Below are positions 39,314-53,406 of a DNA stretch of 64,000 nt, one piece after another. Made by a program: the position numbers and the translations under genes. Under the pieces are notes generated by a model. The model was not told the DNA's origin. It worked only from the letters and a program-made list of their open reading frames with translations, and searched no databases. Location of the stretch: NCBI GenBank assembly GCA_016933575.1, contig JAFGAR010000040.1, forward strand, positions 1 to 64,000, written 5' to 3'. How positions within the stretch are numbered: the stretch's first letter is position 1; each line of letters opens with the position of its first letter. Origin of the DNA: Candidatus Thorarchaeota archaeon. Lineage in GTDB: Archaea; Asgardarchaeota; Thorarchaeia; Thorarchaeales; Thorarchaeaceae.

Positions 39314-40498
39314 ATGCGAAGTAACCTTGAGAAATCTAAATGTGAACAAGCGTGTGATATCCTAAACGAGTTAGGCTTAGACTCATGGTTAGTCTGGGTT
39401 CGAGAAACCTCGCAGATGGTTGATCCTGTATTGCCGCTCATCTTGAGCGGCGATGTGGTCTGGCAGTCAGCCCTCCTCTTCACCAGGAATGGAGAAAAAC
39501 TTGCGATAGTTGGTAATTTTGATGCTGGTGGTATTGAGGTCAAGAACATCTATGATCGTGTTATCCCTTATACACAAGGAATAAAGGAACATCTTCTAGC
39601 TGAACTGAATCGTATCGACCCAACAAAGATTGGGATTAATTTTAGCACAGATGATGTGGCTGCAGATGGAATGACTCTTGGGATGCATATACTCTTGAAG
39701 AGCTATCTTGAAGGGACTCCTTATGGAAACCGTCTTGTTTCTGCTGAAGGTCTTGTCCAACGATTACGTGGTCGAAAAACACCAGAAGAAATCAATCTCG
39801 TGCAAAAAGCTGTTGATATCACTGAAGAAATATTTCGAAAAGCAGAGCACTTTGTAAAGCCCAACCAAACAGAAATTGAGATCTACAAGTTGTTTCATAA
39901 TGAAATGAATAACTATGGCGTGACTAATGCTTGGAATGAAGATCATAATCCAGCTGTGGATGCTGGTCCAAACAAGGAATTCGGTCATGCTGGTCCTACA
40001 GACAATAAGACAAAAGACTCTCAGCTTTTGCACTTTGATTTTGGAGTTCGTTACAAGAACTATTGTTCAGATATCCAGAGGATGTTCTTTTTCGGTCATG
40101 AGAGAGATATACCTTCTGAGATACAGGATGCTTTTGAAGCAGTTCGTGATGCAATCCAAGCAGCGTCAGAGTATATCAAACCAGGTCGTCTAGGTTATGA
40201 GGTTGATGCAATCGCTCGGGATTATGTCAAAGATGCTGGATATGAAGAGTATCAACATGCATTAGGTCACCAGATTGGAAGACATGCTCATGATGGTGGC
40301 GTTCTACTTGGACCTAAATGGGAACGATATGGTGACTCAATTCTAGGTTCTGTTGAACCTGGAAATCTCTTCACATTGGAACTATATGTCACTACAAAGA
40401 ACTATGGCCAAGTGAGTCTAGAAGAGGACATTGTAATCACGGAAAATGGGTGCAGATTTCTTTCTCACCCACAGAAGAAACTGATATGCATTGTATGA
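39314..40498 (+). CDS. M24 family Xaa-Pro peptidase
   Basis: DFG...YCSD, HALGHQIG..AHD, TLE, LEED. Confidence 0.9.
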   Translation: MRSNLEKSKCEQACDILNELGLDSWLVWVRETSQMVDPVLPLILSGDVVWQSALLFTRNGEKLAIVGNFDAGGIEVKNIYDRVIPYTQGIKEHLLAELNRIDPTKIGINFSTDDVAADGMTLGMHILLKSYLEGTPYGNRLVSAEGLVQRLRGRKTPEEINLVQKAVDITEEIFRKAEHFVKPNQTEIEIYKLFHNEMNNYGVTNAWNEDHNPAVDAGPNKEFGHAGPTDNKTKDSQLLHFDFGVRYKNYCSDIQRMFFFGHERDIPSEIQDAFEAVRDAIQAASEYIKPGRLGYEVDAIARDYVKDAGYEEYQHALGHQIGRHAHDGGVLLGPKWERYGDSILGSVEPGNLFTLELYVTTKNYGQVSLEEDIVITENGCRFLSHPQKKLICIV

Positions 40499-40502
40499 TT
40501 TT

Positions 40503-41315
40503 CTATAAAACTAGATTCTCATCCATAGCGCCAGTCCGGTATCCCCGAAGATCAAGTGTAACATAGGTGAAACCTACCTTTCTTGCAATCTGCTCTATTT
40601 GATTCAATTTTGTGATATCAAACATAAGATTCAATTCGTCTTCACCCACTTCAATACGAACAAGGTTTCCATGATATCTCGCTCGGACACATCTGACACC
40701 AAAAATATCAACAACTGCTTGTTCTACAGTGTCTACCATTCTCAACCGATCTAGGTCTATCTTAGTTCCGTAAGGAAATCTAGTTGCGAGACAAGCCATT
40801 GATGGTTTATCTGCAACAGATAGACCTCTCTCCCGTGCATATTCTCTTATTTCCTCTTTAGTAATCGCCGCATTAAGAAATGGTGATTGAACTCCTGACT
40901 CCTCAAGTGCTTTTAATCCCGGTCGATACCCCTCTGTTTCACTTGAGGTGGTTCCTTCAACAACGATGTCTAAACCCATACTCCTCGCAGTTTCTATCCA
41001 CATGCTGGCAAGTATCTGCTTACACGAATAGCATCTGTCTGCCCTATTTGCAGCTAGTCCTTCATATGATAACCAGTCTAAATCCTTCATTATAAGGTCT
41101 AGTCCAAGTCTCTCAGCAATTGATATAGCACTGGCTACTTCTCTCTCTGGAACAGTAGCACTTGTAATTGTCAATAGAGTAGTCCTAGCAGCAGTTTCAC
41201 TCACAACACTTGCGAGAACTGTACTGTCGACTCCTCCACTAAATGCGACTAAAACATTCTTTCCAGATAGTTTCTCTCTAATTGCGTCGAATTTATTCCT
41301 TGTCCGATCTTTCAT
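40503..41315 (-). CDS. larE: Nickel-pincer cofactor sulfur transferase LarE
   Basis: PP-loop AFSGGVDS, RCYSCK, RPG, CLATRFPYG, TLDLRGYRTG. Confidence 0.92.
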   Translation of the reverse strand: MKDRTRNKFDAIREKLSGKNVLVAFSGGVDSTVLASVVSETAARTTLLTITSATVPEREVASAISIAERLGLDLIMKDLDWLSYEGLAANRADRCYSCKQILASMWIETARSMGLDIVVEGTTSSETEGYRPGLKALEESGVQSPFLNAAITKEEIREYARERGLSVADKPSMACLATRFPYGTKIDLDRLRMVDTVEQAVVDIFGVRCVRARYHGNLVRIEVGEDELNLMFDITKLNQIEQIARKVGFTYVTLDLRGYRTGAMDENLVL

Positions 41316-41366
41316 TGGTAGAATTTGTGACCTTATCCTTTAGTCTTAAGCTTTCAGAAGAGGTCC

Positions 41367-43208
41367 TTAGCTTGACATATAGGGATCCTCATCGATGTCA
41401 ATGTCTGCATATCCTGCATCTCTAAGAAGATTTTCAATTGGTTCCGCTCCTGTGATCCAAGAGATTTTCCATGTGTTATCTTCCTGCAGTCGTAATTCCA
41501 CATCCGGCAGGTCTCCAAGTAAATTATGGTCCATCTCAATAGCATCTTGATAGGCACCAACGAGTGGGAGAATAAAATAAGAACTTGGAATATTTTCTAA
41601 CACTCCAATTGGTATTCCCTCTCCCATCTTTCCTCCCGGCATTGTAAGGGGTCTATTATCCTCGGAGAACCATATTTTTTCCGTATTTTGCATATAGAAG
41701 TTTGAGATTTCACCATCAGAATCACAAGTGATATCGACCAGTCTTACCGTTGTCTGAGGATGTTTCTGCAAATCTCTTGTTGGGATGACAGGGAAATGTT
41801 GCTGAACTAGTACATAATCTGCAATGCTGTTGAATACACTAAAGTTCCCAATAACAATGTGCTCAGGATACCAGAAACTTCGGGCCAGTCGATCAGAATG
41901 ATATGAATCAAGTTTCATCTCTCTCAATCGTGATCTGACCGTTCTCTCAAGATTACCAATCACCATCTCTTTCTCGAAGATAAAACCAAGCCCTGCAAGT
42001 GTCATACCACCAAAGTACTCATGGAAGTCGTTCCAGATATCAACCATATGATCCAAGGAAGTGGCTTTATCGATCCTGTCCAAATACTCTCGTTCTTTTT
42101 CTAGGGTACTCTCGGTTTCATATCTCCCGCTTCCTGTCGGAAATACTGATCTGACTTCAAGTGCTTGAACCACGATGAGTGCAGCAAGTGCTGTAACTCC
42201 TCGACCCGACTCAATCATGATGTTCGGCTCTGGTTGTCTATTGTGGTCTTCCTTCAACTGCTCCTTGATACCACTGACAATATTCCTTGCATATTGAAGC
42301 ATCAAATCGGGTGGATATGCACTCTTGTAGTCTATGGCGAGACCTCCGCCAAAATCAATAGCATCAAGTCTAGACAGTCCCATTTCCCGTAGTTCAGAAT
42401 ATATCTTTGTCATGAATCTACCAAATCTGGTAAAGGCCTCAATATTCGTTATTTGAGATCCAGCATGTCCTAGAATTGTCCGAACAGAACCAGCGAATCC
42501 AGTCTGTTTAAGCAAATCAACTACATTGTACAGGTCATGGATGCTTAATCCAAATTTAGAATCACGGCCTGTTGAATGTGACCAATGGCCTTCAACACTG
42601 AGGTATGGTTTGATTCGAAGAACAAGGTTCGTATTCTCGGCTTTGAAATACTTCGTTACTAATTGAGCTTCATGTATTGACTCGATAGAAATAGCTATGT
42701 CATAACCATCATCAAGACATTCTTGAATCAGTCTAAGATATTCAGGATCTTTAGCACCATTACAGATGATATGTCGATGCTTCTCATGCTTTGTGACTGC
42801 CTTGATAAGTTGTAACTCTGCCTTCGTGCCTGCCTCAAGACCATATTCAAAGTCCGACCTAAGAACTGCAGTCACGAAGTCACTTCTTTGATTGACTTTG
42901 ACTGGATAGATACCAATGAATTCACCAGAGTAGGCCAATTCTTTAAAGGCCAAATCAAAGGTGGTTCGTATTTTTTTTATCTGATAGGTAATTAGTTGAG
43001 GGATTCGTAAAGTGAAACTAGAAGTGTAACCTACTTGATTTCCATTCATGGATTTGACCGTATCAATAACATCTTGCAACGTGATTCTTTGATCACCAAG
43101 TTTTATGTATAGGTCTCCATTATCTGTTATATCTAAGAAATGTAGGTCATTTCTATCAATACCAAATACGGTCTTTGATTTATCAACTGACCAAGGGTGC
43201 TCTATCAT
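41367..43208 (-). CDS. speA: Biosynthetic PLP-dependent (fold-type III) arginine decarboxylase
   Basis: YPVKVNQ, GLEAGTKAEL, CNGAKD, SKFGL, DFGGGL, ESGR, DITCDSDG, GAYQ. Confidence 0.9.
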   Translation of the reverse strand: MIEHPWSVDKSKTVFGIDRNDLHFLDITDNGDLYIKLGDQRITLQDVIDTVKSMNGNQVGYTSSFTLRIPQLITYQIKKIRTTFDLAFKELAYSGEFIGIYPVKVNQRSDFVTAVLRSDFEYGLEAGTKAELQLIKAVTKHEKHRHIICNGAKDPEYLRLIQECLDDGYDIAISIESIHEAQLVTKYFKAENTNLVLRIKPYLSVEGHWSHSTGRDSKFGLSIHDLYNVVDLLKQTGFAGSVRTILGHAGSQITNIEAFTRFGRFMTKIYSELREMGLSRLDAIDFGGGLAIDYKSAYPPDLMLQYARNIVSGIKEQLKEDHNRQPEPNIMIESGRGVTALAALIVVQALEVRSVFPTGSGRYETESTLEKEREYLDRIDKATSLDHMVDIWNDFHEYFGGMTLAGLGFIFEKEMVIGNLERTVRSRLREMKLDSYHSDRLARSFWYPEHIVIGNFSVFNSIADYVLVQQHFPVIPTRDLQKHPQTTVRLVDITCDSDGEISNFYMQNTEKIWFSEDNRPLTMPGGKMGEGIPIGVLENIPSSYFILPLVGAYQDAIEMDHNLLGDLPDVELRLQEDNTWKISWITGAEPIENLLRDAGYADIDIDEDPYMSS

Positions 43209-43240
43209 TGTTGTTACTCCTGCAGATTGAGGAGAGGATA

Positions 43241-44695
43241 CTAGACATCCTCATCCTCTTTTATCGAATCTAACATTCCTTGGAATGCTCGAGCTAATTC
43301 ACCAATCTCATCGTCTTTTGAGATATATGATTGGTCAACTTGTAGGTCTTGAGTATCTAAGGGTTGTTCCCTGATTCTTGCTGCAGCATTTCTGGTAGCT
43401 AAATCCATAAGATATTGTAATGGCCGAGTGATTGTGTTAGCAATTGATACTGCGACGATTCCTGCTACAATAATTCCTCCAATCGTTGCAAAGAGGATGA
43501 ATGTTGCAGCTTGAGCATTTGTGTCTGCAATTCTTTGCTCGAGTGGTGGAATTGCTTCTAGAACTTCATCTAGAGGAACTGATATGATGCAGATGTAGTC
43601 TCCTTTTCCTACTGGTGTGTAAACCAGAATTCGCTCAGAACCATCTCTAGTGTATCTGAGAGTTCCTGATGTACCTGGTATTGTTATTGTATCAATCTGC
43701 GCTTGGGTCAATGCAACACTGCTGTCCGAATTGTCTTCAACATCGATTAGATCGGGTAACCCCGAGATGTAGGCATTATCCGGCACTTCAGGATGAGCGA
43801 CTACTCCTCCATTTGCATCAAGTAGGAACGCATAGCCTGTTTCAAGAACACTAACATCGATTACCTTCTCACGAATGTCCTCTATAGTGATGTCACCTGA
43901 GATGACAGCACGTCTCTGACCATTCCAGGACACAGCTTTTCCAATGGATATCAGTAAGACATTGTCGAACTCGTCATAATAAGGCTCAACAAAGACAGTT
44001 TCTCCATTGCCTGCCCAGATATCAAGATACCAGTCTTCGCCTCGTGGATTATAGGGATCTGATCCTCTATCTGCATCAGTACCCGCAAATATACTGCCAG
44101 GATAATTGATGAAGAGACCATCATCTGCAAAGGCTATGTATAACCAGCGAAATTCCAACTGATCATGGATTGCTCTGAAGATGAAGTCCATATTCGATAC
44201 ACGACCCAATTTGTCTGCATTCGTTGTTTCGTATGTTAGATAGTTTGTTGAATCAGTACCCGCAGTATACCAACTACTGTAGGTCCATGATACATTGAGA
44301 CCATAGTTAGCATCATACACATTATCTGCAGGGTCTGGTGCTACTGAATCATTCTCGAACAAGTAGTCATAGTAGACTTCTCTATTTGCATAAGTCGAGC
44401 TTGGATCAAAAAGAGCTTCCAGTTCCTTTGCTGCTGCTTCTATCATACCCTGTGCGCTTGTAAGTTTCTGATTGATGACTTGGGCAGTTTTCTGAGCTGT
44501 TAGATCCATGTTCGTTTGAATCTGAGTTTCTAATGCTAGAGAACTCTCGTCTCTTGTAAAGGTTCCAATGATATCAACAAAGGTTAATGATATGATTCCA
44601 GTTGCTGAGAGCGATACAAACGATATCACCAAGAAGGTGAGAATGACGTTTGTTCGAAATTTTCCCTTTTTCTTTGTTTGAGTTGTTTGTGCCAT
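43241..44695 (-). CDS. Two-TM dCache-HAMP membrane sensor without an output domain
   Basis: TM1; dCache (YNPRGEDWY..EPYYD..SGDI, GYAFLLD.NGGVVAHP); TM2; HAMP (ITRPL..DEIGELARAF) ending at the C-terminus. Confidence 0.85.
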   Translation of the reverse strand: MAQTTQTKKKGKFRTNVILTFLVISFVSLSATGIISLTFVDIIGTFTRDESSLALETQIQTNMDLTAQKTAQVINQKLTSAQGMIEAAAKELEALFDPSSTYANREVYYDYLFENDSVAPDPADNVYDANYGLNVSWTYSSWYTAGTDSTNYLTYETTNADKLGRVSNMDFIFRAIHDQLEFRWLYIAFADDGLFINYPGSIFAGTDADRGSDPYNPRGEDWYLDIWAGNGETVFVEPYYDEFDNVLLISIGKAVSWNGQRRAVISGDITIEDIREKVIDVSVLETGYAFLLDANGGVVAHPEVPDNAYISGLPDLIDVEDNSDSSVALTQAQIDTITIPGTSGTLRYTRDGSERILVYTPVGKGDYICIISVPLDEVLEAIPPLEQRIADTNAQAATFILFATIGGIIVAGIVAVSIANTITRPLQYLMDLATRNAAARIREQPLDTQDLQVDQSYISKDDEIGELARAFQGMLDSIKEDEDV

Positions 44696-44711
44696 GTTCT
44701 CCTTCACCTCC

Positions 44712-47567
44712 CTAGTAATCTACAGTTGTTCCTCCCACTTCTAGTTGTGCCATTAGAACACCTATCCTATCAAAGGCTTTCTCGATGTCCATCCTCACAT
44801 CAATACTGTCCACGACTGAGAGATATTGACCTTGGGGGATATTCTCACAGATAGACTCAAGGAGTTCTTCAGTTGTCATTTGTTTTCCAGTCTTCTTGGA
44901 GCGGACTCGTTTTTCAACCGCTGCTTTCAGCTCCTGTCCCACTCCAATGACTATGAGATTCACATCAAGATGATTATCCCGAATGAATCCTTCAATGGTT
45001 AGTGGTCGGTTTCTCATCAGACGGTCTTTCTCCGTGAGAATACCCTTCAGAACATCTAGCGAGTATGTATCCGAACTATTGTCTTGACCATCCGTAAGAG
45101 CAATGACCCATCTGTGTTCACTTGACTCTATTTTATTGAGTTCTTCAAGTGCTCTACCAAGTGCATCGTAGAAGGCTGTTGCATAATTTGGATACTTTAA
45201 TGCACTAAGCGCTTTGAAGATAGGACTGTCTTCTTCATCATATTCTCCTTTTAATGTAAGGGGTAGAATTTCACGATACGATGAATTGAATATGATTATT
45301 GAAACAGAGTCCTGTGGATTGACTTGACTACGGATGATTTCCATAGCTCCATTGACGGCCGCCTTGATTCTCTGTTGTGCTTGCATACTTCCTGAATAGT
45401 CAATTACCAAAGTCACGCTCTTCTTGTAAAGAATCGAGCGTCTGAGTTTCTCAGCTTTTCTTCGCACATCATGACTTGGTTTATTCAACTGGTCGAGAAC
45501 ATCTGCAAGTTTTTGCATAGCAAAGACAACAAGCCACATCTCATCTGTTGATTCCGCAAAAGAGATAGCCTGGTTATAAGCATCTTCTGCTTTTCGCCAA
45601 TGTCCTTGGACTTGGTATAGTTGACCTTCATGATACTTGATGTAAGCCAAGCTTCTCTCATAACCAATAGATTTGGCAGTCTTCTTTGCTTCATCAAAAC
45701 GTGACTGTGCTTGACTATATCTGCCATCTCTCATGAATACAAGACCCATGGCATCATATCGTCTCGCAAGACCATAGGAATTCTTCAAAGTGAGGTCGAT
45801 AGCTTGGGCATCTTCAAGAAGTTTCATCGATTTCTCAACATTGCCTCTATCCATCTCAACGAGTGCCATATTATGATAGATAGAAGATATCCTCATCATT
45901 GCATCTTTCTCACTTCCACCTTCTTCCTTTGTCTTCTCCAATAATCTATTAGCAATGTCAAGCGATTGTTCATAATAGTCCATGGCATTTCCAGGGTCGC
46001 CTCGTTGTCTGAACACGTTGCCAATATTCAGTAGCATTGTTTGTTCACCGACATCAATCATGAGTCTTCGACTTATCTCGAGAAGATTCTGATAGTTAGC
46101 AAGAGCTCTTCTAAGGTCTCCACGGATAAATGCCTCATTTCCAAATCGCATGGCCTCTTGGAAACTTAGCAATGCATCGACCGTTGTTCCAACCTCTTCA
46201 TACATCGCGCCTGCAGTTGTCACACCTCTTGTGAAATCTTGACGTGACATCTTGTTTACTAGTCGAGTCATCTCAGATATTGGTTCAACAATTGCACGCC
46301 CTCTTCGTCTTGATACACTGAACACTACAGCTGATACTCCGGCAAGGATACCTCCAAGTACTGCAGTAAGAATTAGAGTTCTTGTAGCTACAAGATTGAG
46401 GATATTCGTTGCAGGTCCGATGACATCTGAGTCTGGAACAACAACTACCAGAATATAGTCTGTGCCTTCTATTTGAGCAAAAGAGAGATGCCAAGTACTG
46501 CTCTGTTTCTGATAGGTCAACAGTCCTGCTTCATCTACTAGGACATGGCTTGTCAAAAGACTATGGAATGCAGTAGCTTCCGCACTACCAGATGATCCAA
46601 ACTCAAGGGTTTCAATCGATGCAACTTCTTCATCGAGAGCCTGATCTTTATGTGCCACTACGTTGCCAGCTGTATCAAGCATGAAGGCATAGCCATTTGA
46701 TAACACATTGAGGTTTAGTACTCTATCAAGAATTGTAGCCATGGTCACATCTGCAGAAACAACACCGATGAGGGATCCATTGTCAAATCTTACAGGTCTT
46801 CCCATAGATATGACCAATCCCACAGGATCGACATAGGGAGCTGTGAGAATCACCTGGTCATTGCTAGGAGCAATTGAGGCCACATTGGTATACCACTCCT
46901 GAGCATTTGCATCATAATCAAGCCCTGGCCCATCATAATCTAGAAAATAACTAAGGTCGTCAAAAGGATAGTTCTTGAAAAGGTGTTGATCTGAAACCGC
47001 TAAATCGTATCCCATGTACAACCACTTGTAATCATTGTTCATCTCATGAAGTGCTTTGAAAATGTTAATCATATTTGAAGAATAATCCAAGGCAACTTGT
47101 GTACTGGATGAAAAATCGTGAGGATCATTATTGTTCCATTCTGATCTTGGAATGAAATAGCAGTCAGCTGCAAATGAGATGTATTCTGATTCGTATGCTT
47201 CGACTATTGCATCATCGGTTTCAAATGTTCCAAGCAAGTCTGACCAATGCGGTTCTTCATTAATGTCCCAATAATAGCTATATTGCGGGGAGGCAGAAAT
47301 TCTACCATTAAACAAATCCTCACAATAAGCCTCCATCATAAACACACCATCGACATAGCTTTGCCATCGCTCTCCGATGAAGAGAGCTGTGTCATTGGAT
47401 AGCCTCTGGAGGTTTGCTAATTCCTCAGATTTGAGAGCCTCCGCTGCATCTCCTGCATTAGCATTTGCAACGGTGAAAATCTCACCCATTGATAATGCGG
47501 ATATCGCTAGCATTGGAACCAAAGCAACGACGATGAATGTGACTACTATTCTCTTTGAGATGTCCAT
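44712..47567 (-). CDS. Two-TM dCache-HAMP-TPR-vWA membrane receptor
   Basis: TM1; dCache (YDANAQEWY..APYVD..SADV); TM2; HAMP (IVEPI..EEVG); about 5-6 TPRs (NIGNVFRQRGD..AMDYYEQSL); vWA with MIDAS DYSGS, TAFYDA, LTDG. Confidence 0.85.
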   Translation of the reverse strand: MDISKRIVVTFIVVALVPMLAISALSMGEIFTVANANAGDAAEALKSEELANLQRLSNDTALFIGERWQSYVDGVFMMEAYCEDLFNGRISASPQYSYYWDINEEPHWSDLLGTFETDDAIVEAYESEYISFAADCYFIPRSEWNNNDPHDFSSSTQVALDYSSNMINIFKALHEMNNDYKWLYMGYDLAVSDQHLFKNYPFDDLSYFLDYDGPGLDYDANAQEWYTNVASIAPSNDQVILTAPYVDPVGLVISMGRPVRFDNGSLIGVVSADVTMATILDRVLNLNVLSNGYAFMLDTAGNVVAHKDQALDEEVASIETLEFGSSGSAEATAFHSLLTSHVLVDEAGLLTYQKQSSTWHLSFAQIEGTDYILVVVVPDSDVIGPATNILNLVATRTLILTAVLGGILAGVSAVVFSVSRRRGRAIVEPISEMTRLVNKMSRQDFTRGVTTAGAMYEEVGTTVDALLSFQEAMRFGNEAFIRGDLRRALANYQNLLEISRRLMIDVGEQTMLLNIGNVFRQRGDPGNAMDYYEQSLDIANRLLEKTKEEGGSEKDAMMRISSIYHNMALVEMDRGNVEKSMKLLEDAQAIDLTLKNSYGLARRYDAMGLVFMRDGRYSQAQSRFDEAKKTAKSIGYERSLAYIKYHEGQLYQVQGHWRKAEDAYNQAISFAESTDEMWLVVFAMQKLADVLDQLNKPSHDVRRKAEKLRRSILYKKSVTLVIDYSGSMQAQQRIKAAVNGAMEIIRSQVNPQDSVSIIIFNSSYREILPLTLKGEYDEEDSPIFKALSALKYPNYATAFYDALGRALEELNKIESSEHRWVIALTDGQDNSSDTYSLDVLKGILTEKDRLMRNRPLTIEGFIRDNHLDVNLIVIGVGQELKAAVEKRVRSKKTGKQMTTEELLESICENIPQGQYLSVVDSIDVRMDIEKAFDRIGVLMAQLEVGGTTVDY

Positions 47568-47634
47568 CTTCTCTTTCTCCCTTTGATTCTATGAATTATC
47601 ATTGTGTTAACATCAATTTCCAAACCTATCTTCC

Positions 47635-49080
47635 CTACCTTGCTTGTGCGTTTAATTCCTCTATCAATTTCTCTGTAAAATCCCGTAGGTCCATTTTTTC
47701 ATCCAGGATGAATAGGTCTCCTTCAAGTGTCCCTTTGACTGCACCTTCACCCAGAAGTATGATGAGAGTCCTACGAAGTATTCGTCGATCAACTCCAGTT
47801 TCTCTCTCCATCCGAGAAACATCAACACTGTCAGTTCCTTGCAATAGACTATAAAGTGTAGAACGTATCTTCGAAATATCTTGCTCCTGAAGTTTCCTTA
47901 TTCCTTTGAGTTTCTTGGTTTCTGTCCGTACAAATGTACTTCCATCAATATGTCCATCAATATCATTACACTGTATCATTGCCTGTAGACTACGGCGTAG
48001 ATTATAGGCAGCAGGTCTTGGAAGCGTTTTTCTGAGGATTCGATCAAGCTCCTTCAACTTGATTATATTATGCTTAGACGTGATAGAATCGATACTCTCT
48101 TGGATATATTCCTCAATGACATACTCCTCTATCATCTGGAGAGCTGCACCGCATGCACTGCATTTTGCGGCCTCTGGCGAGGTAGGAGCCCCACAATTCC
48201 CACATTTTATCGCTCTTCTATAGAGTATCTCCTTTGTCGAACCTATTTGTTGAAGAATCACCTGTTCAGTCCTGCTTGCTTTTCCTGTCTGTCCGATTTC
48301 CCAAAAACTAAGTTTCCTATCCTTTGTACTGACCACGAGATATGCAATATCGGAGATGTCATCTGGTACTCCTGTCGCCATTGCTCTTGGGATGTCGCCA
48401 ATATCTATTCGAGTTACTTCATTTCCATCAATATCCCAGACTCTAAGTGTCGGTGATAGGTCTCCGGTAACGAAGAGAGTTCTCTTTTCGAAAGATAGAA
48501 CTGCAAACACCATGATTCTATCACCGAGCTGGAGTTCTCGTAGTTGATAACCAGCAGCTGTCAAAATCGTAATCTTTCCGGTCTTGTCTGCAATAACCGT
48601 TTCAAGCTCTGTATCGTGTGTGATATCTTCTAGCCAGACATCAGCAATTGGCTGGTCGACATTTCTTGTGAAGATTGTATCCTTATCATCATTGTAAAGA
48701 ACTACTCTATTGTTTTCCAGTGCGACCACAACTTCTGCAGCATCATCCCCATCGATGTCTCGTGCATCACAGGCAATCACATCGCTCTCAAGTCGGATGT
48801 TCCAAACTGTACTTCCTCTATGGTCAACAACAAGTACTTTTTTGCCAACCCCGCCAACAAGAGAATCTGTTCCCTCTCCTTCAACATCTGCAACAGCGAT
48901 ACATCTGACCTTACTCGACCATTTTCTGGTGCTTGTGAGTGTACCCTTCGCATCGAAAACTCTTAGTCTATCTCCATAATCAAGGGAGAATACCTGTGTA
49001 CTTGAATCTCTTCGTTGTCTTACATAGACCGAATATACATTTGCAGCAATAGGTACACTTGCAACAGCGCGAATCTTCAA
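47635..49080 (-). CDS. Cytoplasmic FG-GAP/BBS2-like beta-propeller plus double zinc ribbon plus two PCI-like winged helices
   Basis: DVEGEG, DIDGDDAAE and DITHDTELE loops; CGNCG..CSACG; LQAMI..IDGHID and LIILLGEGAVKGTLE winged-helix ends; no signal peptide. Confidence 0.65.
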   Translation of the reverse strand: MKIRAVASVPIAANVYSVYVRQRRDSSTQVFSLDYGDRLRVFDAKGTLTSTRKWSSKVRCIAVADVEGEGTDSLVGGVGKKVLVVDHRGSTVWNIRLESDVIACDARDIDGDDAAEVVVALENNRVVLYNDDKDTIFTRNVDQPIADVWLEDITHDTELETVIADKTGKITILTAAGYQLRELQLGDRIMVFAVLSFEKRTLFVTGDLSPTLRVWDIDGNEVTRIDIGDIPRAMATGVPDDISDIAYLVVSTKDRKLSFWEIGQTGKASRTEQVILQQIGSTKEILYRRAIKCGNCGAPTSPEAAKCSACGAALQMIEEYVIEEYIQESIDSITSKHNIIKLKELDRILRKTLPRPAAYNLRRSLQAMIQCNDIDGHIDGSTFVRTETKKLKGIRKLQEQDISKIRSTLYSLLQGTDSVDVSRMERETGVDRRILRRTLIILLGEGAVKGTLEGDLFILDEKMDLRDFTEKLIEELNAQAR

Positions 49081-49147
49081 ATCGTTGATAGCACCTATTG
49101 GGAAAATTGTTGCATAGCCATATAAGTATACATAGATTTCGAGTAAA

Positions 49148-50227
49148 ATGATGACAAACTCCGGTCAATGTAGAATTGGCTTCCTCTGGAGTCCACTCCT
49201 AGAAACATTTGATTTCGGACGAAAGCATCCTATTCGAGTAGGCCGATTCAAACTACTACGAGACTTTGTAGATGAAGTTGGATTTCTAGATCTTCCGAAT
49301 GTTGAAGTCATTACCCCTGAACTTCTATCTGAAGATCTTTTAAAAACCATTCACTCGGAGGAATATATCGCAAAAGTCCAACAGATTTCTGAAACAGGAA
49401 TTGGTGATATTGATATAGATACTCCGGGATTCAGAAATATTTACTTCAATTCTCGAATTGTATCTGGAGCTTCAGTTACTGGGATTAAATCAGTGCAGTC
49501 TGGACTGGTAGATCACTTTGTTTCCCCAACTGGTGGCTTCCATCACGCCAAGTTTGGCGCTGGTGGCGGCTTTTGTATTTTCAATGATATTGCTGCTTGT
49601 GTTTATGAACTGAAGAATCAGGGAATCAAAAGAGTGCTAATAGCCGATTTTGATGTTCACCATGGCAACGGTACACAGACCTATTTCTATAATGATCCCG
49701 AAGTAATGCAGATCTCATTTCATGAGGACCCTGAATGGATGTTTCCACATGATGGATACATTCAGGATATTGGAGAAGGCTCTGGTCGTGGATACAATAT
49801 CAATATGCCTTTTCCAATGGACTCGGGAGATGCTGTCTATCGCTATGCTTTTGATGAATTGATCCCCCCATTAGTTGACTCCTATCAACCTGAGTTTATC
49901 ATCTTTATACCTGGTTTTGATGCTCACTACAAAGATCGTCTTGCTCATCTCACTCTAACAACTGACATGATACGATACATCGCATCTACAATCCATGATT
50001 TCGCTCATGAATACAGTTCTGGAAAATTAGGTGTCGTCACTGGTGGCGGTTATCACCATGAATCTCTCTGTTGGGGTCTTGGTACGGTTATGTCTGTTCT
50101 CTCTGGCTTGGACTTTGAACCACCCCCACAGCAACCACCATTTGATGATAATGAAGAAACTTGGGAAGAAGTAAAAAATAATGTGGCTCTCGTGAAAGAC
50201 CTCATCTTTCCAATTTTCAATCTCTGA
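49148..50227 (+). CDS. Zn-dependent histone deacetylase superfamily protein (AcuC/acetylpolyamine amidohydrolase-like)
   Basis: GGFHHA, GFCIFND, DFDVHHGNGTQ, SFHE, GFDAH, GGGY. Confidence 0.92.
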   Translation: MMTNSGQCRIGFLWSPLLETFDFGRKHPIRVGRFKLLRDFVDEVGFLDLPNVEVITPELLSEDLLKTIHSEEYIAKVQQISETGIGDIDIDTPGFRNIYFNSRIVSGASVTGIKSVQSGLVDHFVSPTGGFHHAKFGAGGGFCIFNDIAACVYELKNQGIKRVLIADFDVHHGNGTQTYFYNDPEVMQISFHEDPEWMFPHDGYIQDIGEGSGRGYNINMPFPMDSGDAVYRYAFDELIPPLVDSYQPEFIIFIPGFDAHYKDRLAHLTLTTDMIRYIASTIHDFAHEYSSGKLGVVTGGGYHHESLCWGLGTVMSVLSGLDFEPPPQQPPFDDNEETWEEVKNNVALVKDLIFPIFNL

Positions 50228-50230
50228 TTG

Positions 50231-51127
50231 TTATCCAGGTCTCCAAAAATCAAGTATGTACTCATAGGTTGTTGAGAGCGTGATATAATTCGAAGGCCAA
50301 CCAAAGATACCAGCTTTATTCACGATATTCCTTCTATCCCAGATAATGGTATTTCGAAGTTCATAACCTGCATTTTGAAGAGCATTCGTTACATGGATGT
50401 GAGCAGGAATACGTTTTCCCTTCCACCAATAGTCGGTGATATTGATAACGCATCGGCCTCTTGGTTTCAATAGGGGAAGGATGCCCTTGAAGATGTCCTG
50501 AATAGCCAAAGAATATTCTTTGATATTCATAGTTCCTAAATCTGCTGGATGATCTGAATATTGTTGGACCTGCAAATAGTGCTCATCATCTCTTAGGTCT
50601 CCTCTTATGCTCTTGTTTTTTCGCTTACGATTCAGAAGATTAGCATATGGTGGTGACGTAATACAGAGACTAACTGTTTCCTCCTCGAAATAATCTCCAA
50701 TGTTCAAGGCGTCTGCACATATTGCTATCTGATTAGAGGTCTTCTTTGTTGTTTCTAACAATCTGTTGTTGCTGAGGTCAACGTACTCCTTTTTTAGATC
50801 GAAACCAACTGCATTTCTATCCAAATCCTGAGCAGCTAATAATGTCGTTCCTGAGCCAACAAACGGATCTAACACTAGCTCTCCTCTGTGAGTAAACAGG
50901 TTGATGCATTTAGATGGAAGTGCAATTGGAAAGACTGCAGGATGAATTTTCTTGTCACGTATGTCTCTCTTTTCATAGTAGAACTCCCAGACAGCAATCT
51001 GGTGTTGAAGCCACTCTTTTGCAGATAGGCAATTAATATGGTTCGATGGGCACCCACATGTCCGCTCATGTCGGATTCTGAGAGGTTTTGATATCTCCAA
51101 AGGTATCCCGTACCTACATAATCTCAC
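50231..51127 (-). CDS. Orphan amino-DNA methyltransferase (N4C/N6A), permuted motif order
   Basis: HPAVFP, then DPFVGSGTT, then TSPPY. Confidence 0.88.
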   Translation of the reverse strand: MRLCRYGIPLEISKPLRIRHERTCGCPSNHINCLSAKEWLQHQIAVWEFYYEKRDIRDKKIHPAVFPIALPSKCINLFTHRGELVLDPFVGSGTTLLAAQDLDRNAVGFDLKKEYVDLSNNRLLETTKKTSNQIAICADALNIGDYFEEETVSLCITSPPYANLLNRKRKNKSIRGDLRDDEHYLQVQQYSDHPADLGTMNIKEYSLAIQDIFKGILPLLKPRGRCVINITDYWWKGKRIPAHIHVTNALQNAGYELRNTIIWDRRNIVNKAGIFGWPSNYITLSTTYEYILDFWRPG

Positions 51128-51803
51128 TCATCAATTTTCGGGCAAGATCAATAGCACTCATTGCATCTCTTCCAAACGCATCAGCGCCTGTATAATCCAC
51201 AACATTCTGATCGATGTCTCCCCCACCTATCATTACCTTTACTTTGTCACGCAATCCCGCCTCTTGAAGGGCTTCAACTGTCCTCTTCATTACATCATGA
51301 GTGGTTGTAATCAATCCACTTAATGCAAGGACTCTCGCTTGAGTTTCCTCTATTTTTTGAACGAATCTTTCAGGTGCTACATCTTCACCAAGGTCATACA
51401 CTTCGAATCCATTGGCTTTCAGGAAAGCTACTACTAGATTCTTCCCAATATAATGAACATCTCCCTGGACAGTCCCAATTACTACTTTCCCACTCTCATT
51501 CTCTCGCTGTGTTGATAGTAAGACCGGTTCTAATTTTTGCATTGCTCGCTTGAAGACATCTGCTGACATGACGAGTTCAACTAGAAAATATTCATTCTTT
51601 GAGAATCGTTCACCAACAATGTCCATACCTTTCTTCAAGGCGTCAAGAATTTGGAATGGGTCTATTCTCTCAGATATATAGGTGTCAACTAGGTTGAGGA
51701 TTTTGGATTCATCGATCTCTGCCATTGCTTCCATTAACTCTGTCATTGTGCATTGACCATCCAGTTCATTTCTAAGCGTTCTAACTCTTATATTTGGCAT
51801 CAT
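51114..51803 (-). CDS. Corrinoid (B12-binding) methyltransferase cognate protein
   Basis: Cap domain GMDIVGERF..EYFL.EL; GDVHYIGKN (DxHxxG); LSGL; IGGG. Confidence 0.93.
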   Translation of the reverse strand: MMPNIRVRTLRNELDGQCTMTELMEAMAEIDESKILNLVDTYISERIDPFQILDALKKGMDIVGERFSKNEYFLVELVMSADVFKRAMQKLEPVLLSTQRENESGKVVIGTVQGDVHYIGKNLVVAFLKANGFEVYDLGEDVAPERFVQKIEETQARVLALSGLITTTHDVMKRTVEALQEAGLRDKVKVMIGGGDIDQNVVDYTGADAFGRDAMSAIDLARKLMSEIM

Positions 51804-51813
51804 ATATCTTTCA

Positions 51814-53406
51814 TCATGGTAGCTTGATTGATTCGATGAAGGTCTTTTGGAAGTCGCTATGGGATGCCAGTTCTATATAGTGAACACTCTCAATTATGTG
51901 GTCCGCATGTCTTCGACTTTCTGATGAAAGAAGAAGTCCTTTAGCTCCTTCTCCGGCAGCATTACCTACTGGAACTATCTTTGACACATCTATTTGAGGT
52001 AGAAGTCCAATCGCAGTGGCACTTATTGGATTGATGTAATTGCCAAACGCTCCTGCTAACAAAACACGGGCTATATCTCCTCGGGAGATTTCCAAGCTCT
52101 TGAGAAGCAACATAGTTCCTGCTTGAATTGCCGCTTTTGCCAGTTGTATTTGCCTGACATCTCTCTGTGTGAAAATGATTCGTTTCTCTTCTTTCGCCTC
52201 TTCTGAATCAACAACAACGTAGGAAAGTCCATGATCAGCATCTTCGATAACTCTCTTCGATACCTTCTGCATCCTCCCATTCTGGTCTAGGATTCGAATA
52301 CGTCTTAACTCTGCTACAATATCTATGATGGCTGAGCCACAGATTCCCTGTGGATTGGCATTCCCAATGACACTGATCTCTGGTATGTCGTCGATTCCAT
52401 GTATTTGGAAATGCTCTATCGCTCCATTCTGACCCCGCATACCTTGAAAGATAGTAGCACCTTCAAAGGCTGGTCCTGCGGCAGCGGAACAACAAAATAA
52501 CTGACCATCTGTAGCGAGAACAATCTCACCATTTGTACCAATATCTATTCCGAGTACCACATCCTTTACAGAATCAAGTTGCTGAGATAGAATGAAAGCG
52601 ACTGTATCTCCTCCAACAAAACCTGCTATATTCGGTGCTACGTAGACCTCGCAATTCGGATTAATATTTAGATTGATATCTACTCCTCTCATTGTTACAG
52701 CTTCTTTAACTGTAGGAGTATATGGTGCAAATGCCAGTGGTCTCACCTCAGTTCCTAAAAACAGGTGATTCATAGCAGTATTCCCAACTACTGATATTCT
52801 GGTTAACGCTGATGGGTCTAAATCTGCAGTTTCATAAAGCACCATTACCAACCGGTTAATCTCTTTGAGAATGGTATTCCGAAGAAGATGGATTCCGTCT
52901 TCCTGTCTTATCGCATATGCGATTCTTGACATAACATCTTCTCCAAAAGCAGTCTGAGGATTTAGAGATGATATTTGTGCTATCTGAACTCCATTTACTA
53001 AATCCATCAGGTATGCAGCAATTGTTGTTGTCCCGAGGTCAAAGGCAATACCATAATGGCCTTCTTGATATTTGTCAATATCCCACTTCCTCGATACTCC
53101 CTCGGATAGTATCTTAACATCTTCAAGTTGATATGGCACGAGAACACGAATCGGTTCTTCCACAACATGTTGACACGCTAGTCTGAATCCCTGCTGAAGT
53201 TCTTCAGATTGGATATGTTGAGCATCTCTCTCTGTTGGCATACTAGGCGGTTGAACAATGATTTTGCATTTGCCGCAAGAACCGATTCCTCCACAATCAG
53301 CTAAGATATGGAGTCCCACTTCTCGTGCAGCGTCCAGGATGGTCTTTGAAGAATCCACAGAGATCTTCAAACCAGAAGGTTCGAATATCACTAGATGCTT
53401 GTTCAT
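51814..53406 (-). CDS. Reductive activator of corrinoid proteins (RACo/RamA-like, 2Fe-2S plus ASKHA)
   Basis: CGGIGSCGKC..RLACQ, DLGTTT, GEDVMSRI, DIGTNGE, AAGPAFEG, GICGS, AGAFG. Confidence 0.92.
   Translation of the reverse strand: MNKHLVIFEPSGLKISVDSSKTILDAAREVGLHILADCGGIGSCGKCKIIVQPPSMPTERDAQHIQSEELQQGFRLACQHVVEEPIRVLVPYQLEDVKILSEGVSRKWDIDKYQEGHYGIAFDLGTTTIAAYLMDLVNGVQIAQISSLNPQTAFGEDVMSRIAYAIRQEDGIHLLRNTILKEINRLVMVLYETADLDPSALTRISVVGNTAMNHLFLGTEVRPLAFAPYTPTVKEAVTMRGVDINLNINPNCEVYVAPNIAGFVGGDTVAFILSQQLDSVKDVVLGIDIGTNGEIVLATDGQLFCCSAAAGPAFEGATIFQGMRGQNGAIEHFQIHGIDDIPEISVIGNANPQGICGSAIIDIVAELRRIRILDQNGRMQKVSKRVIEDADHGLSYVVVDSEEAKEEKRIIFTQRDVRQIQLAKAAIQAGTMLLLKSLEISRGDIARVLLAGAFGNYINPISATAIGLLPQIDVSKIVPVGNAAGEGAKGLLLSSESRRHADHIIESVHYIELASHSDFQKTFIESIKLP

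Follow-up and report, generated by a model that had tools for sequence, protein, structure and literature searches.

Among the described dCache_1 sensors, those closest to the receptors treated here belong to the amino-acid class dCache_1AA (PctA, PctB, PctC, Mlp24, Mlp37, Tlp3 and CtaA), in whose motif, in PctA numbering, Y121, R126 and W128 touch the ligand carboxylate and Y144 and D173 touch the amino group (PMC8915833). The exchange R126A in PctA lowers affinity 61-fold and does not abolish binding (PMC8915833). The amine class dCache_1AM (PctD, PacA, McpX and an M. mazei kinase, 3LIB) arose from an amino-acid sensor by loss of this Arg, is defined by the R103/D133 pair of an insertion above the pocket and the cation-pi residue W155 of PctD, and is reported among archaea only from Halobacteriota (PMC10589655). 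Agmatine and polyamines are bound by the dCache_1 domains of McpU and TlpQ, which have acidic pockets and dissociation constants in the nanomolar to micromolar range (agmatine 0.15-0.5 uM; PMC6234866). Here we describe a pair of dCache_1 receptor genes, A and B, that stand beside a gene for a SpeA-type decarboxylase in a metagenome-assembled genome of Candidatus Thorarchaeota. The DNA analysed, referred to below as the window, comprises positions 1-64,000 of contig JAFGAR010000040.1, and the locus occupies 41367-50227. To our knowledge very few archaeal receptors have a known ligand, and none has been measured for Asgard archaea.

Taken as a whole, we tentatively read the locus, at somewhat less than an even chance, as one in which A and B sense a cationic amine and are coupled to the supply of agmatine and polyamines made by SpeA. 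The locus consists of four minus-strand genes with intergenic gaps of 67, 4 and 32 nucleotides (nt), the 4 nt lying between receptors A and B and the 32 nt between receptor B and speA, and of one divergent plus-strand gene:

41367-43208, minus strand: SpeA-type decarboxylase of fold III, dependent on pyridoxal phosphate (PLP); 613 amino acids; Pfam Orn_Arg_deC_N
43241-44707, minus strand: receptor B; 488 amino acids; transmembrane (TM) helix, dCache_1, TM helix, HAMP
44712-47567, minus strand: receptor A; 951 amino acids; TM helix, dCache_1, TM helix, weak HAMP, TPR, vWA
47635-49080, minus strand: beta-propeller/zinc-ribbon protein (Pfam); first gene of the operon
49081-49147: divergent intergenic region of 67 nt between the propeller gene and the HDAC gene, with A/T-rich, TATA-like stretches
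49148-50227, plus strand: HDAC-family deacetylase; PF00850, 248.5 bits

Receptor pair and ligand pocket

The dCache_1 domain (PF02743) is above the cut-off of 45 bits in both receptors (B 61.8 bits, A 49.2 bits), and A and B are the sole dCache_1 genes of their own genome, whose assembly is 85% complete. The AlphaFold model of B (mean pLDDT 80.4) has the canonical dCache_1 form, in which two alpha/beta modules come after a long helix. In a Foldseek search this model retrieved dCache_1 structures with E-values down to 1e-12, the nearest being the amino-acid binders Mlp24, PscC, Mlp37, PctA/B and CtaA, and the next the M. mazei kinase domain 3LIB and alpha2delta; a look-up in the ESM Atlas returned generic dCache clusters only. 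The fold, the closest structural neighbours and most of the motif are thus shared with dCache_1AA, from which A and B differ by an extra segment of about 60 residues after the first helix.

The motif was mapped by HMMER alignments of A and B to PctA (5LTX), PctB and PctC. The segments 'YNPRGEDWY' of B and 'YDANAQEWY' of A align with 'YDPRSRPWY' of PctA, the counterpart of Y144 lies in 'EPYYD' (B) and 'APYVD' (A), and that of D173 in 'SGDITI' (B) and 'SADVTM' (A). Five of the six motif positions (Y121, W128, Y129, Y144 and D173) are therefore present in both proteins, and R126, which the definition of dCache_1AA includes, is replaced by Glu in B (Glu224) and by Gln in A. The initial annotation of this DNA had noted the retained Tyr, Trp, Tyr and Asp and the exchange of the Arg, which these alignments bear out, and its statement that the Arg binds the ligand carboxylate agrees with the literature (PMC8915833). 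The gene order that it gave, with a SpeA-type gene next downstream and an HDAC gene divergent across 67 nt, was likewise confirmed.

The exchange is conserved. We surveyed 400 Asgard genomes, whose families are labelled f1, f2 and so on, with f1 being the family of the window's genome. All 14 B orthologues compared, from five families, have Glu or Asp at the R126 position, and the residue that follows is mostly acidic also; the 'PY.D' element and the equivalents of Y144 and D173 are invariant in this set (in the numbering of B, Y243, D245 and D272 do not vary), W128 has become Phe in one protein and Y129 His in one. In the 14 A orthologues Arg and Lys do not occur at this position, which is Glu in eight, Gln in four, Phe in one and Ser in one; two A proteins of f14 have no PY element.

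Outside this set the position varies by family:

f26: Arg in B and Arg in A, with the full canonical motif (YDPRxRxWY, PY.D, D) in both
f9: Asp in B; the entire binding set lost in A
f12: Gln in B; Trp or Phe in A
second pair of f18, without speA: Asp in B; Arg in A

The f26 modules with the full canonical motif, a further likeness to dCache_1AA, are at L071:7589-12959, L072:1861-7222, L073:24-5376 and L074:2184-7551. In a maximum-likelihood tree of B, all speA-linked modules group with f12 and the second f18 pair in a well-supported clade (98/97), and f26, f27, f25 and f9 fall in the other. On our reading the pair probably began as an amino-acid sensor, and the Arg was lost and speA recruited in one lineage, both states then being kept while about six families diverged.

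In both receptors a hydrophobic helix stands at the N-terminus and another after the dCache domain, and basic residues come next (read from the translations); the dCache domain is therefore placed outside the cell, and HAMP, TPR and vWA in the cytoplasm. Besides dCache_1, Pfam finds in B only the HAMP domain, the protein ending 15 residues beyond it, and in A the TPR repeats and, after them, a vWA domain whose DxSxS MIDAS motif is intact; HAMP is weak in the window's A and is detected in the A orthologue of locus L025. Domain searches for HisKA/HATPase, MCPsignal, GGDEF/EAL and PP2C output domains found none in A or B, so that the output, unlike that of dCache_1AA, is neither kinase, chemoreceptor nor cyclase. 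The strict co-occurrence of A and B suggests that they form a heteromer. A weak VWA_N match was seen in one B orthologue (L025:8717-10117).

A dCache_1 domain and a vWA domain also share one polypeptide in alpha2delta and CACHD1, and both sequence and structure matches to alpha2delta-1 and CACHD1 are significant. In alpha2delta, however, both domains are extracellular, whereas the vWA of A is cytoplasmic, lying after the second TM helix and preceded by TPR; an alpha2delta-like architecture was rejected as an explanation on this ground.

SpeA-type decarboxylase and the receptor module

Residues 8-607 of the SpeA-like protein align with the solved SpeA structures 3NZP, 3N2O and 3NZQ, and the catalytic motifs are identical: YPVKVNQ with the PLP lysine, HxGSQ, GGGLAIDY of the Gly loop, ESGR and DITCDSDGE. 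The protein scores below the NCBIfam cut-offs (PRK05354, 352 bits vs 369; TIGR01273, 330.8 vs 624.1) and, judged by its sequence, is a member of a divergent Asgard subfamily, which occurs in 108 of the 400 genomes. It is the single PF02784 match, and hence the sole fold-III decarboxylase, of its own genome, where profile searches found no PdaD, AdoMet_dc-type or OKR_DC_1-type decarboxylase. TiaS and deoxyhypusine synthase are encoded there, as are two members of the arginase family whose closest score is to agmatinase; the fragments scanned fall below the curated cut-off.

The distributions of PdaD and the SpeA-like subfamily are largely complementary across Asgard families, except in f14, where both occur:

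own genus: PdaD 0/28
f1: PdaD 0/85, SpeA-like 75/85
f9: PdaD 118/135, SpeA-like 0/135
f26: PdaD 14/14, SpeA-like 0/14

Because PdaD was found in none of the 85 f1 genomes, no other type is found in the window's genome, and TiaS and deoxyhypusine synthase are present, the SpeA-like enzyme is most likely the housekeeping arginine decarboxylase and agmatine source of these lineages. Arginine as its probable substrate has indirect backing from the complementary distribution and from the TiaS and agmatinase-like genes. Thorarchaeota and several other Asgard families would then use a SpeA-type enzyme in place of the usual archaeal pyruvoyl arginine decarboxylase. In Thorarchaeota it would have replaced PdaD and would supply agmatine for agmatidine in tRNA-Ile, for hypusine and for putrescine. 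The initial annotation had treated the bacterial-type SpeA as a special, signal-making enzyme; this did not hold, and an accessory role of that kind was rejected because no other arginine decarboxylase was found.

Adjacency of A, B and SpeA, which we verified in 35 genomes belonging to five Asgard families, is not peculiar to the window's genome, a question that had been raised at the outset. The three genes are collinear in f1 (several genera), f14 and f20, and A-B is divergent from speA in f18 and f5; in f12 the pair and speA are 6 kb apart on one contig. The block of HDAC gene and propeller-A-B-speA is common to all 15 same-genus loci fetched and to the other sufficiently long Thorarchaeota contigs, the exceptions (L035, L037 and L043) being contigs that end inside the block. 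Chance adjacency was rejected, since the linkage survives rearrangements in five families. Some speA-like copies stand without receptors.

The receptor pair is part of a wider Asgard module of A, B and the beta-propeller protein. Homologues of B are present in 113 of the 400 genomes. The propeller gene is the most frequent third partner, adjoining A-B in f1, f18, f26, f9, f25 and f27, and in f26, f9, f25 and f27 the three are collinear and lack a speA in their vicinity; a second A-B pair, likewise without speA, is found in one f18 genome. The neighbours of the speA-less modules vary and include an M29 peptidase, a Ras-like GTPase and a thiolase. No description of the module or of its speA link in Asgard archaea was found in the literature searched, and neither was a signalling design of this kind, a widespread paired dCache receptor with non-enzymatic TPR-vWA output. 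Two genes away from one f26 module lies a fusion of Roadblock/LC7 with a Ras-family GTPase (L071:5186-6184), and in f14 a small RING-finger open reading frame (ORF; zf-RING_2 / Prok-RING_1, weak; L025:12958-13305) stands just upstream of A in place of the propeller gene.

Some further features of the SpeA-like genes were observed. The C-terminus of the protein (window 41367-41400) is an acidic 'D-D-P-Y-hydrophobic' tail conserved in f1, f14, f20, f12 and one f5 locus; it differs in f18 and is missing from several receptor-less copies. One possible role of this tail is that of a docking peptide, with the TPR or vWA domain of A as its target. Two tandem SpeA-like genes with no receptors nearby occur in a closed f5 genome (L058:9643-12267 and L058:12645-14402), the former an ORF of 874 amino acids in which the SpeA-like part carries a further, fused C-terminal domain of about 290 residues. 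In f20 a second fold-III decarboxylase directly follows speA (L051:11135-12574, also in L050, L052 and L066); it is LysA-like, with 203 bits against a cut-off of 298.

Proposed amine sensing and alternative explanations

The pocket of A and B is most likely built for a cationic amine that lacks a carboxylate, such as agmatine, putrescine or a related di- or polyamine, because the Arg that clamps the carboxylate is replaced while the Tyr and Asp that hold the amino group remain. A receptor that had changed its ligand from an amino acid to the decarboxylated amine would be expected to show such a contrast, with Arg in both subunits of the speA-less f26 and an acidic residue in B of the speA-linked modules. 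The proposal of a decarboxylated amine in the initial annotation is plausible on these grounds, the loss of the Arg being conserved and the f26 receptors keeping it; the ligand itself we infer.

Both known amine classes offer points of comparison. With dCache_1AM the receptors share the aromatic pair (F188/Y189 of PctD) and the final Asp (D235), PacA has a Gln at the R126 position as A does (PMC10589655), and 3LIB is the best sequence match both of B and of the B profile. B has an insertion and an invariant Trp, W188, and the HMMER alignments to 3LIB start past the W-Y pair, so that equivalence to R103, D133 and W155 of PctD is not established. McpU and TlpQ are comparable acidic dCache sensors, in which Tyr-x-Asp and a later Asp hold the primary amine and further acidic residues the second nitrogen, but they are bacterial and have chemoreceptor output; for their class there is no published sequence motif (PMC10589655). 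The locus thus looks like an amine sensor by its residues, with membership shown in neither class.

If the pair does sense amines, its most likely job would be product or availability sensing, in which the receptors read an amine present outside and the cell adjusts its synthesis of agmatine and polyamines accordingly. The signal would leave non-enzymatically, passing from HAMP into A's TPR-vWA scaffold; a probable partner in output is the propeller/zinc-ribbon/winged-helix protein. SpeA might be reached through regulation of the operon by way of the propeller partner, or through direct binding to TPR-vWA. A membrane sensor beside an amino-acid decarboxylase is familiar from the Cad system of E. 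coli, where the outer domain of CadC senses the product cadaverine as feedback; CadC is of unrelated fold, a ToxR-like one-component DNA binder, and serves an inducible acid-stress system with an antiporter, not a housekeeping enzyme. Here, an essential decarboxylase would be tied to an extracellular sensor. The proposal makes a sharp prediction: of two kinds of orthologous ectodomain that differ at one position, the Arg type of f26 should bind amino acids, and the type of Thorarchaeota and their allies, with Glu or Asp, should bind amines.

Several points weigh against amine sensing coupled to SpeA. No amine transporter is encoded in the locus, and because the A-B-propeller core exists without SpeA, the generic output of the module cannot be SpeA itself. 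In the B tree the link between loss of the Arg and speA goes back to one evolutionary event and so does not amount to a statistical association. The Asp in B of f9, which has no speA neighbour, and the Gln (B) and Trp or Phe (A) of f12 mean that an acidic residue is neither exclusive to the speA context nor required by it. Of the dCache_1AM domains tested, none bound putrescine or agmatine; their ligands were methylamines, choline or ethanolamine (PMC10589655). TlpQ and McpU are the only proven dCache sensors of agmatine and polyamines, yet they have no detectable sequence similarity to the receptors: McpU (6F9G) and TlpQ (6FU4) are absent from the sequence matches in the Protein Data Bank (E<=0.1 for single sequences, <=0.01 for profiles), and both are also absent from the top 50 Foldseek matches of the B model.

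Alternatively, the receptors would respond to another extracellular cue, for example a metal cation, pH or another small molecule that fits an acidic aromatic pocket, with SpeA as only one regulated output of an acid, osmotic or growth-state response whose product is not the ligand. We consider this doubtful, though with a real chance of being right. It would accord with the occurrence of the core without SpeA, among varied neighbours, in four families, with the Asp of the speA-less f9 B, and with the many ligand classes of dCache_1, which include inorganic ions (PMC10589655). However, within the SpeA-linked clade the amino-group binders Y144 and D173 do not vary, the nearest structural relatives bind amino acids, and that speA has stayed so long beside the pair, rearrangements included, is in keeping with a chemical link to arginine-derived amines. 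That the pockets have ceased to bind a small ligand, A and B being pseudo-receptors, a structural or scaffolding membrane pair whose motif residues are kept for folding, is unlikely. B has no output domain and A no enzymatic one, part of the role of W128 and Y129 is described as structural (PMC10589655), and the pocket of A has decayed in f9 and lost its PY element in f14; but in A of f9, where the pocket is evidently unused, the binding residues decay together, many at once, whereas SpeA-linked B keeps all amino-group contacts and a strictly acidic R126 site in five families, and HAMP is kept in both proteins.

The initial annotation had suggested an autocrine or quorum-like circuit, in which the cell would release agmatine or polyamine of its own making and then sense it. 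A producer enzyme and a candidate sensor do share one operon, and the pocket is amine-like in both A and B, but SpeA is the sole candidate arginine decarboxylase and hence needed for housekeeping, no exporter or antiporter was seen in any locus examined, the HDAC link is weak, and polyamines, being common in sediments, would in our judgement make poor private signals. With nothing else pointing there, such a circuit is quite improbable. Very improbable is continued binding of amino acids, such as the SpeA substrate arginine, in spite of the missing Arg. Five of six motif positions are kept, and the PctA mutant is weakened and not abolished in binding (PMC8915833); against this, the reversal of charge, often with a second acidic residue ('EDWY'), should repel a carboxylate, and the definition of the motif excludes such sequences (PMC8915833).

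Amine sensing coupled to SpeA can also be put in a stronger form, which we hold to be improbable. The receptor family would have switched from an amino acid (f26, Arg) to a decarboxylated amine (Glu or Asp) together with recruitment of the decarboxylase, and SpeA would be controlled post-translationally by TPR-vWA and the propeller/winged-helix partner. If true, this would be an archaeal counterpart of the way in which polyamines feed back on ornithine decarboxylase in eukaryotes, with the reading done on the outside of the cell.

Propeller protein, HDAC and neighbouring genes

The product of 47635-49080 is a cytoplasmic FG-GAP/BBS2-like beta-propeller with a zinc ribbon and two winged-helix-like domains (Pfam). 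Its model has a mean pLDDT of 79.5, and Foldseek returned generic NHL, WD40, BBS2, BBS9 and KICSTOR propellers with no specific functional lead.

The nearest solved relatives of the HDAC-family protein are HDAH and the catalytic domains of HDAC6, and HDAC10 scores no better. In the alignment with HDAC6 the Zn ligand of GFDA is followed by KDRLAH, with Leu as in HDAC6, at a position that we take to be the polyamine-gatekeeper Glu site of HDAC10. The gene neighbours the operon only in part of f1. A polyamine role of the deacetylase, as first suggested, is thus possible but not supported. At L063:3132-6069 a receptor-less SpeA-like gene (32% identical) is divergent from an HDAC gene 52% identical to that of the window, a layout that resembles the window's minus propeller-A-B.

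A scan of 40000-51500 against Rfam gave no match. Next after speA, at 40503-41315, lies a gene for LarE, an ATP-dependent sacrificial sulfur transferase (252 bits vs a cut-off of 150); LarE was rejected as a member of the system, as it adjoins only in some Thorarchaeota loci and its known role is unrelated. Beside the HDAC gene, 50231-53406 encodes a DNA methylase, a corrinoid (B12-binding) protein and a RACo-type corrinoid activase, which are syntenic in most Thorarchaeota loci.

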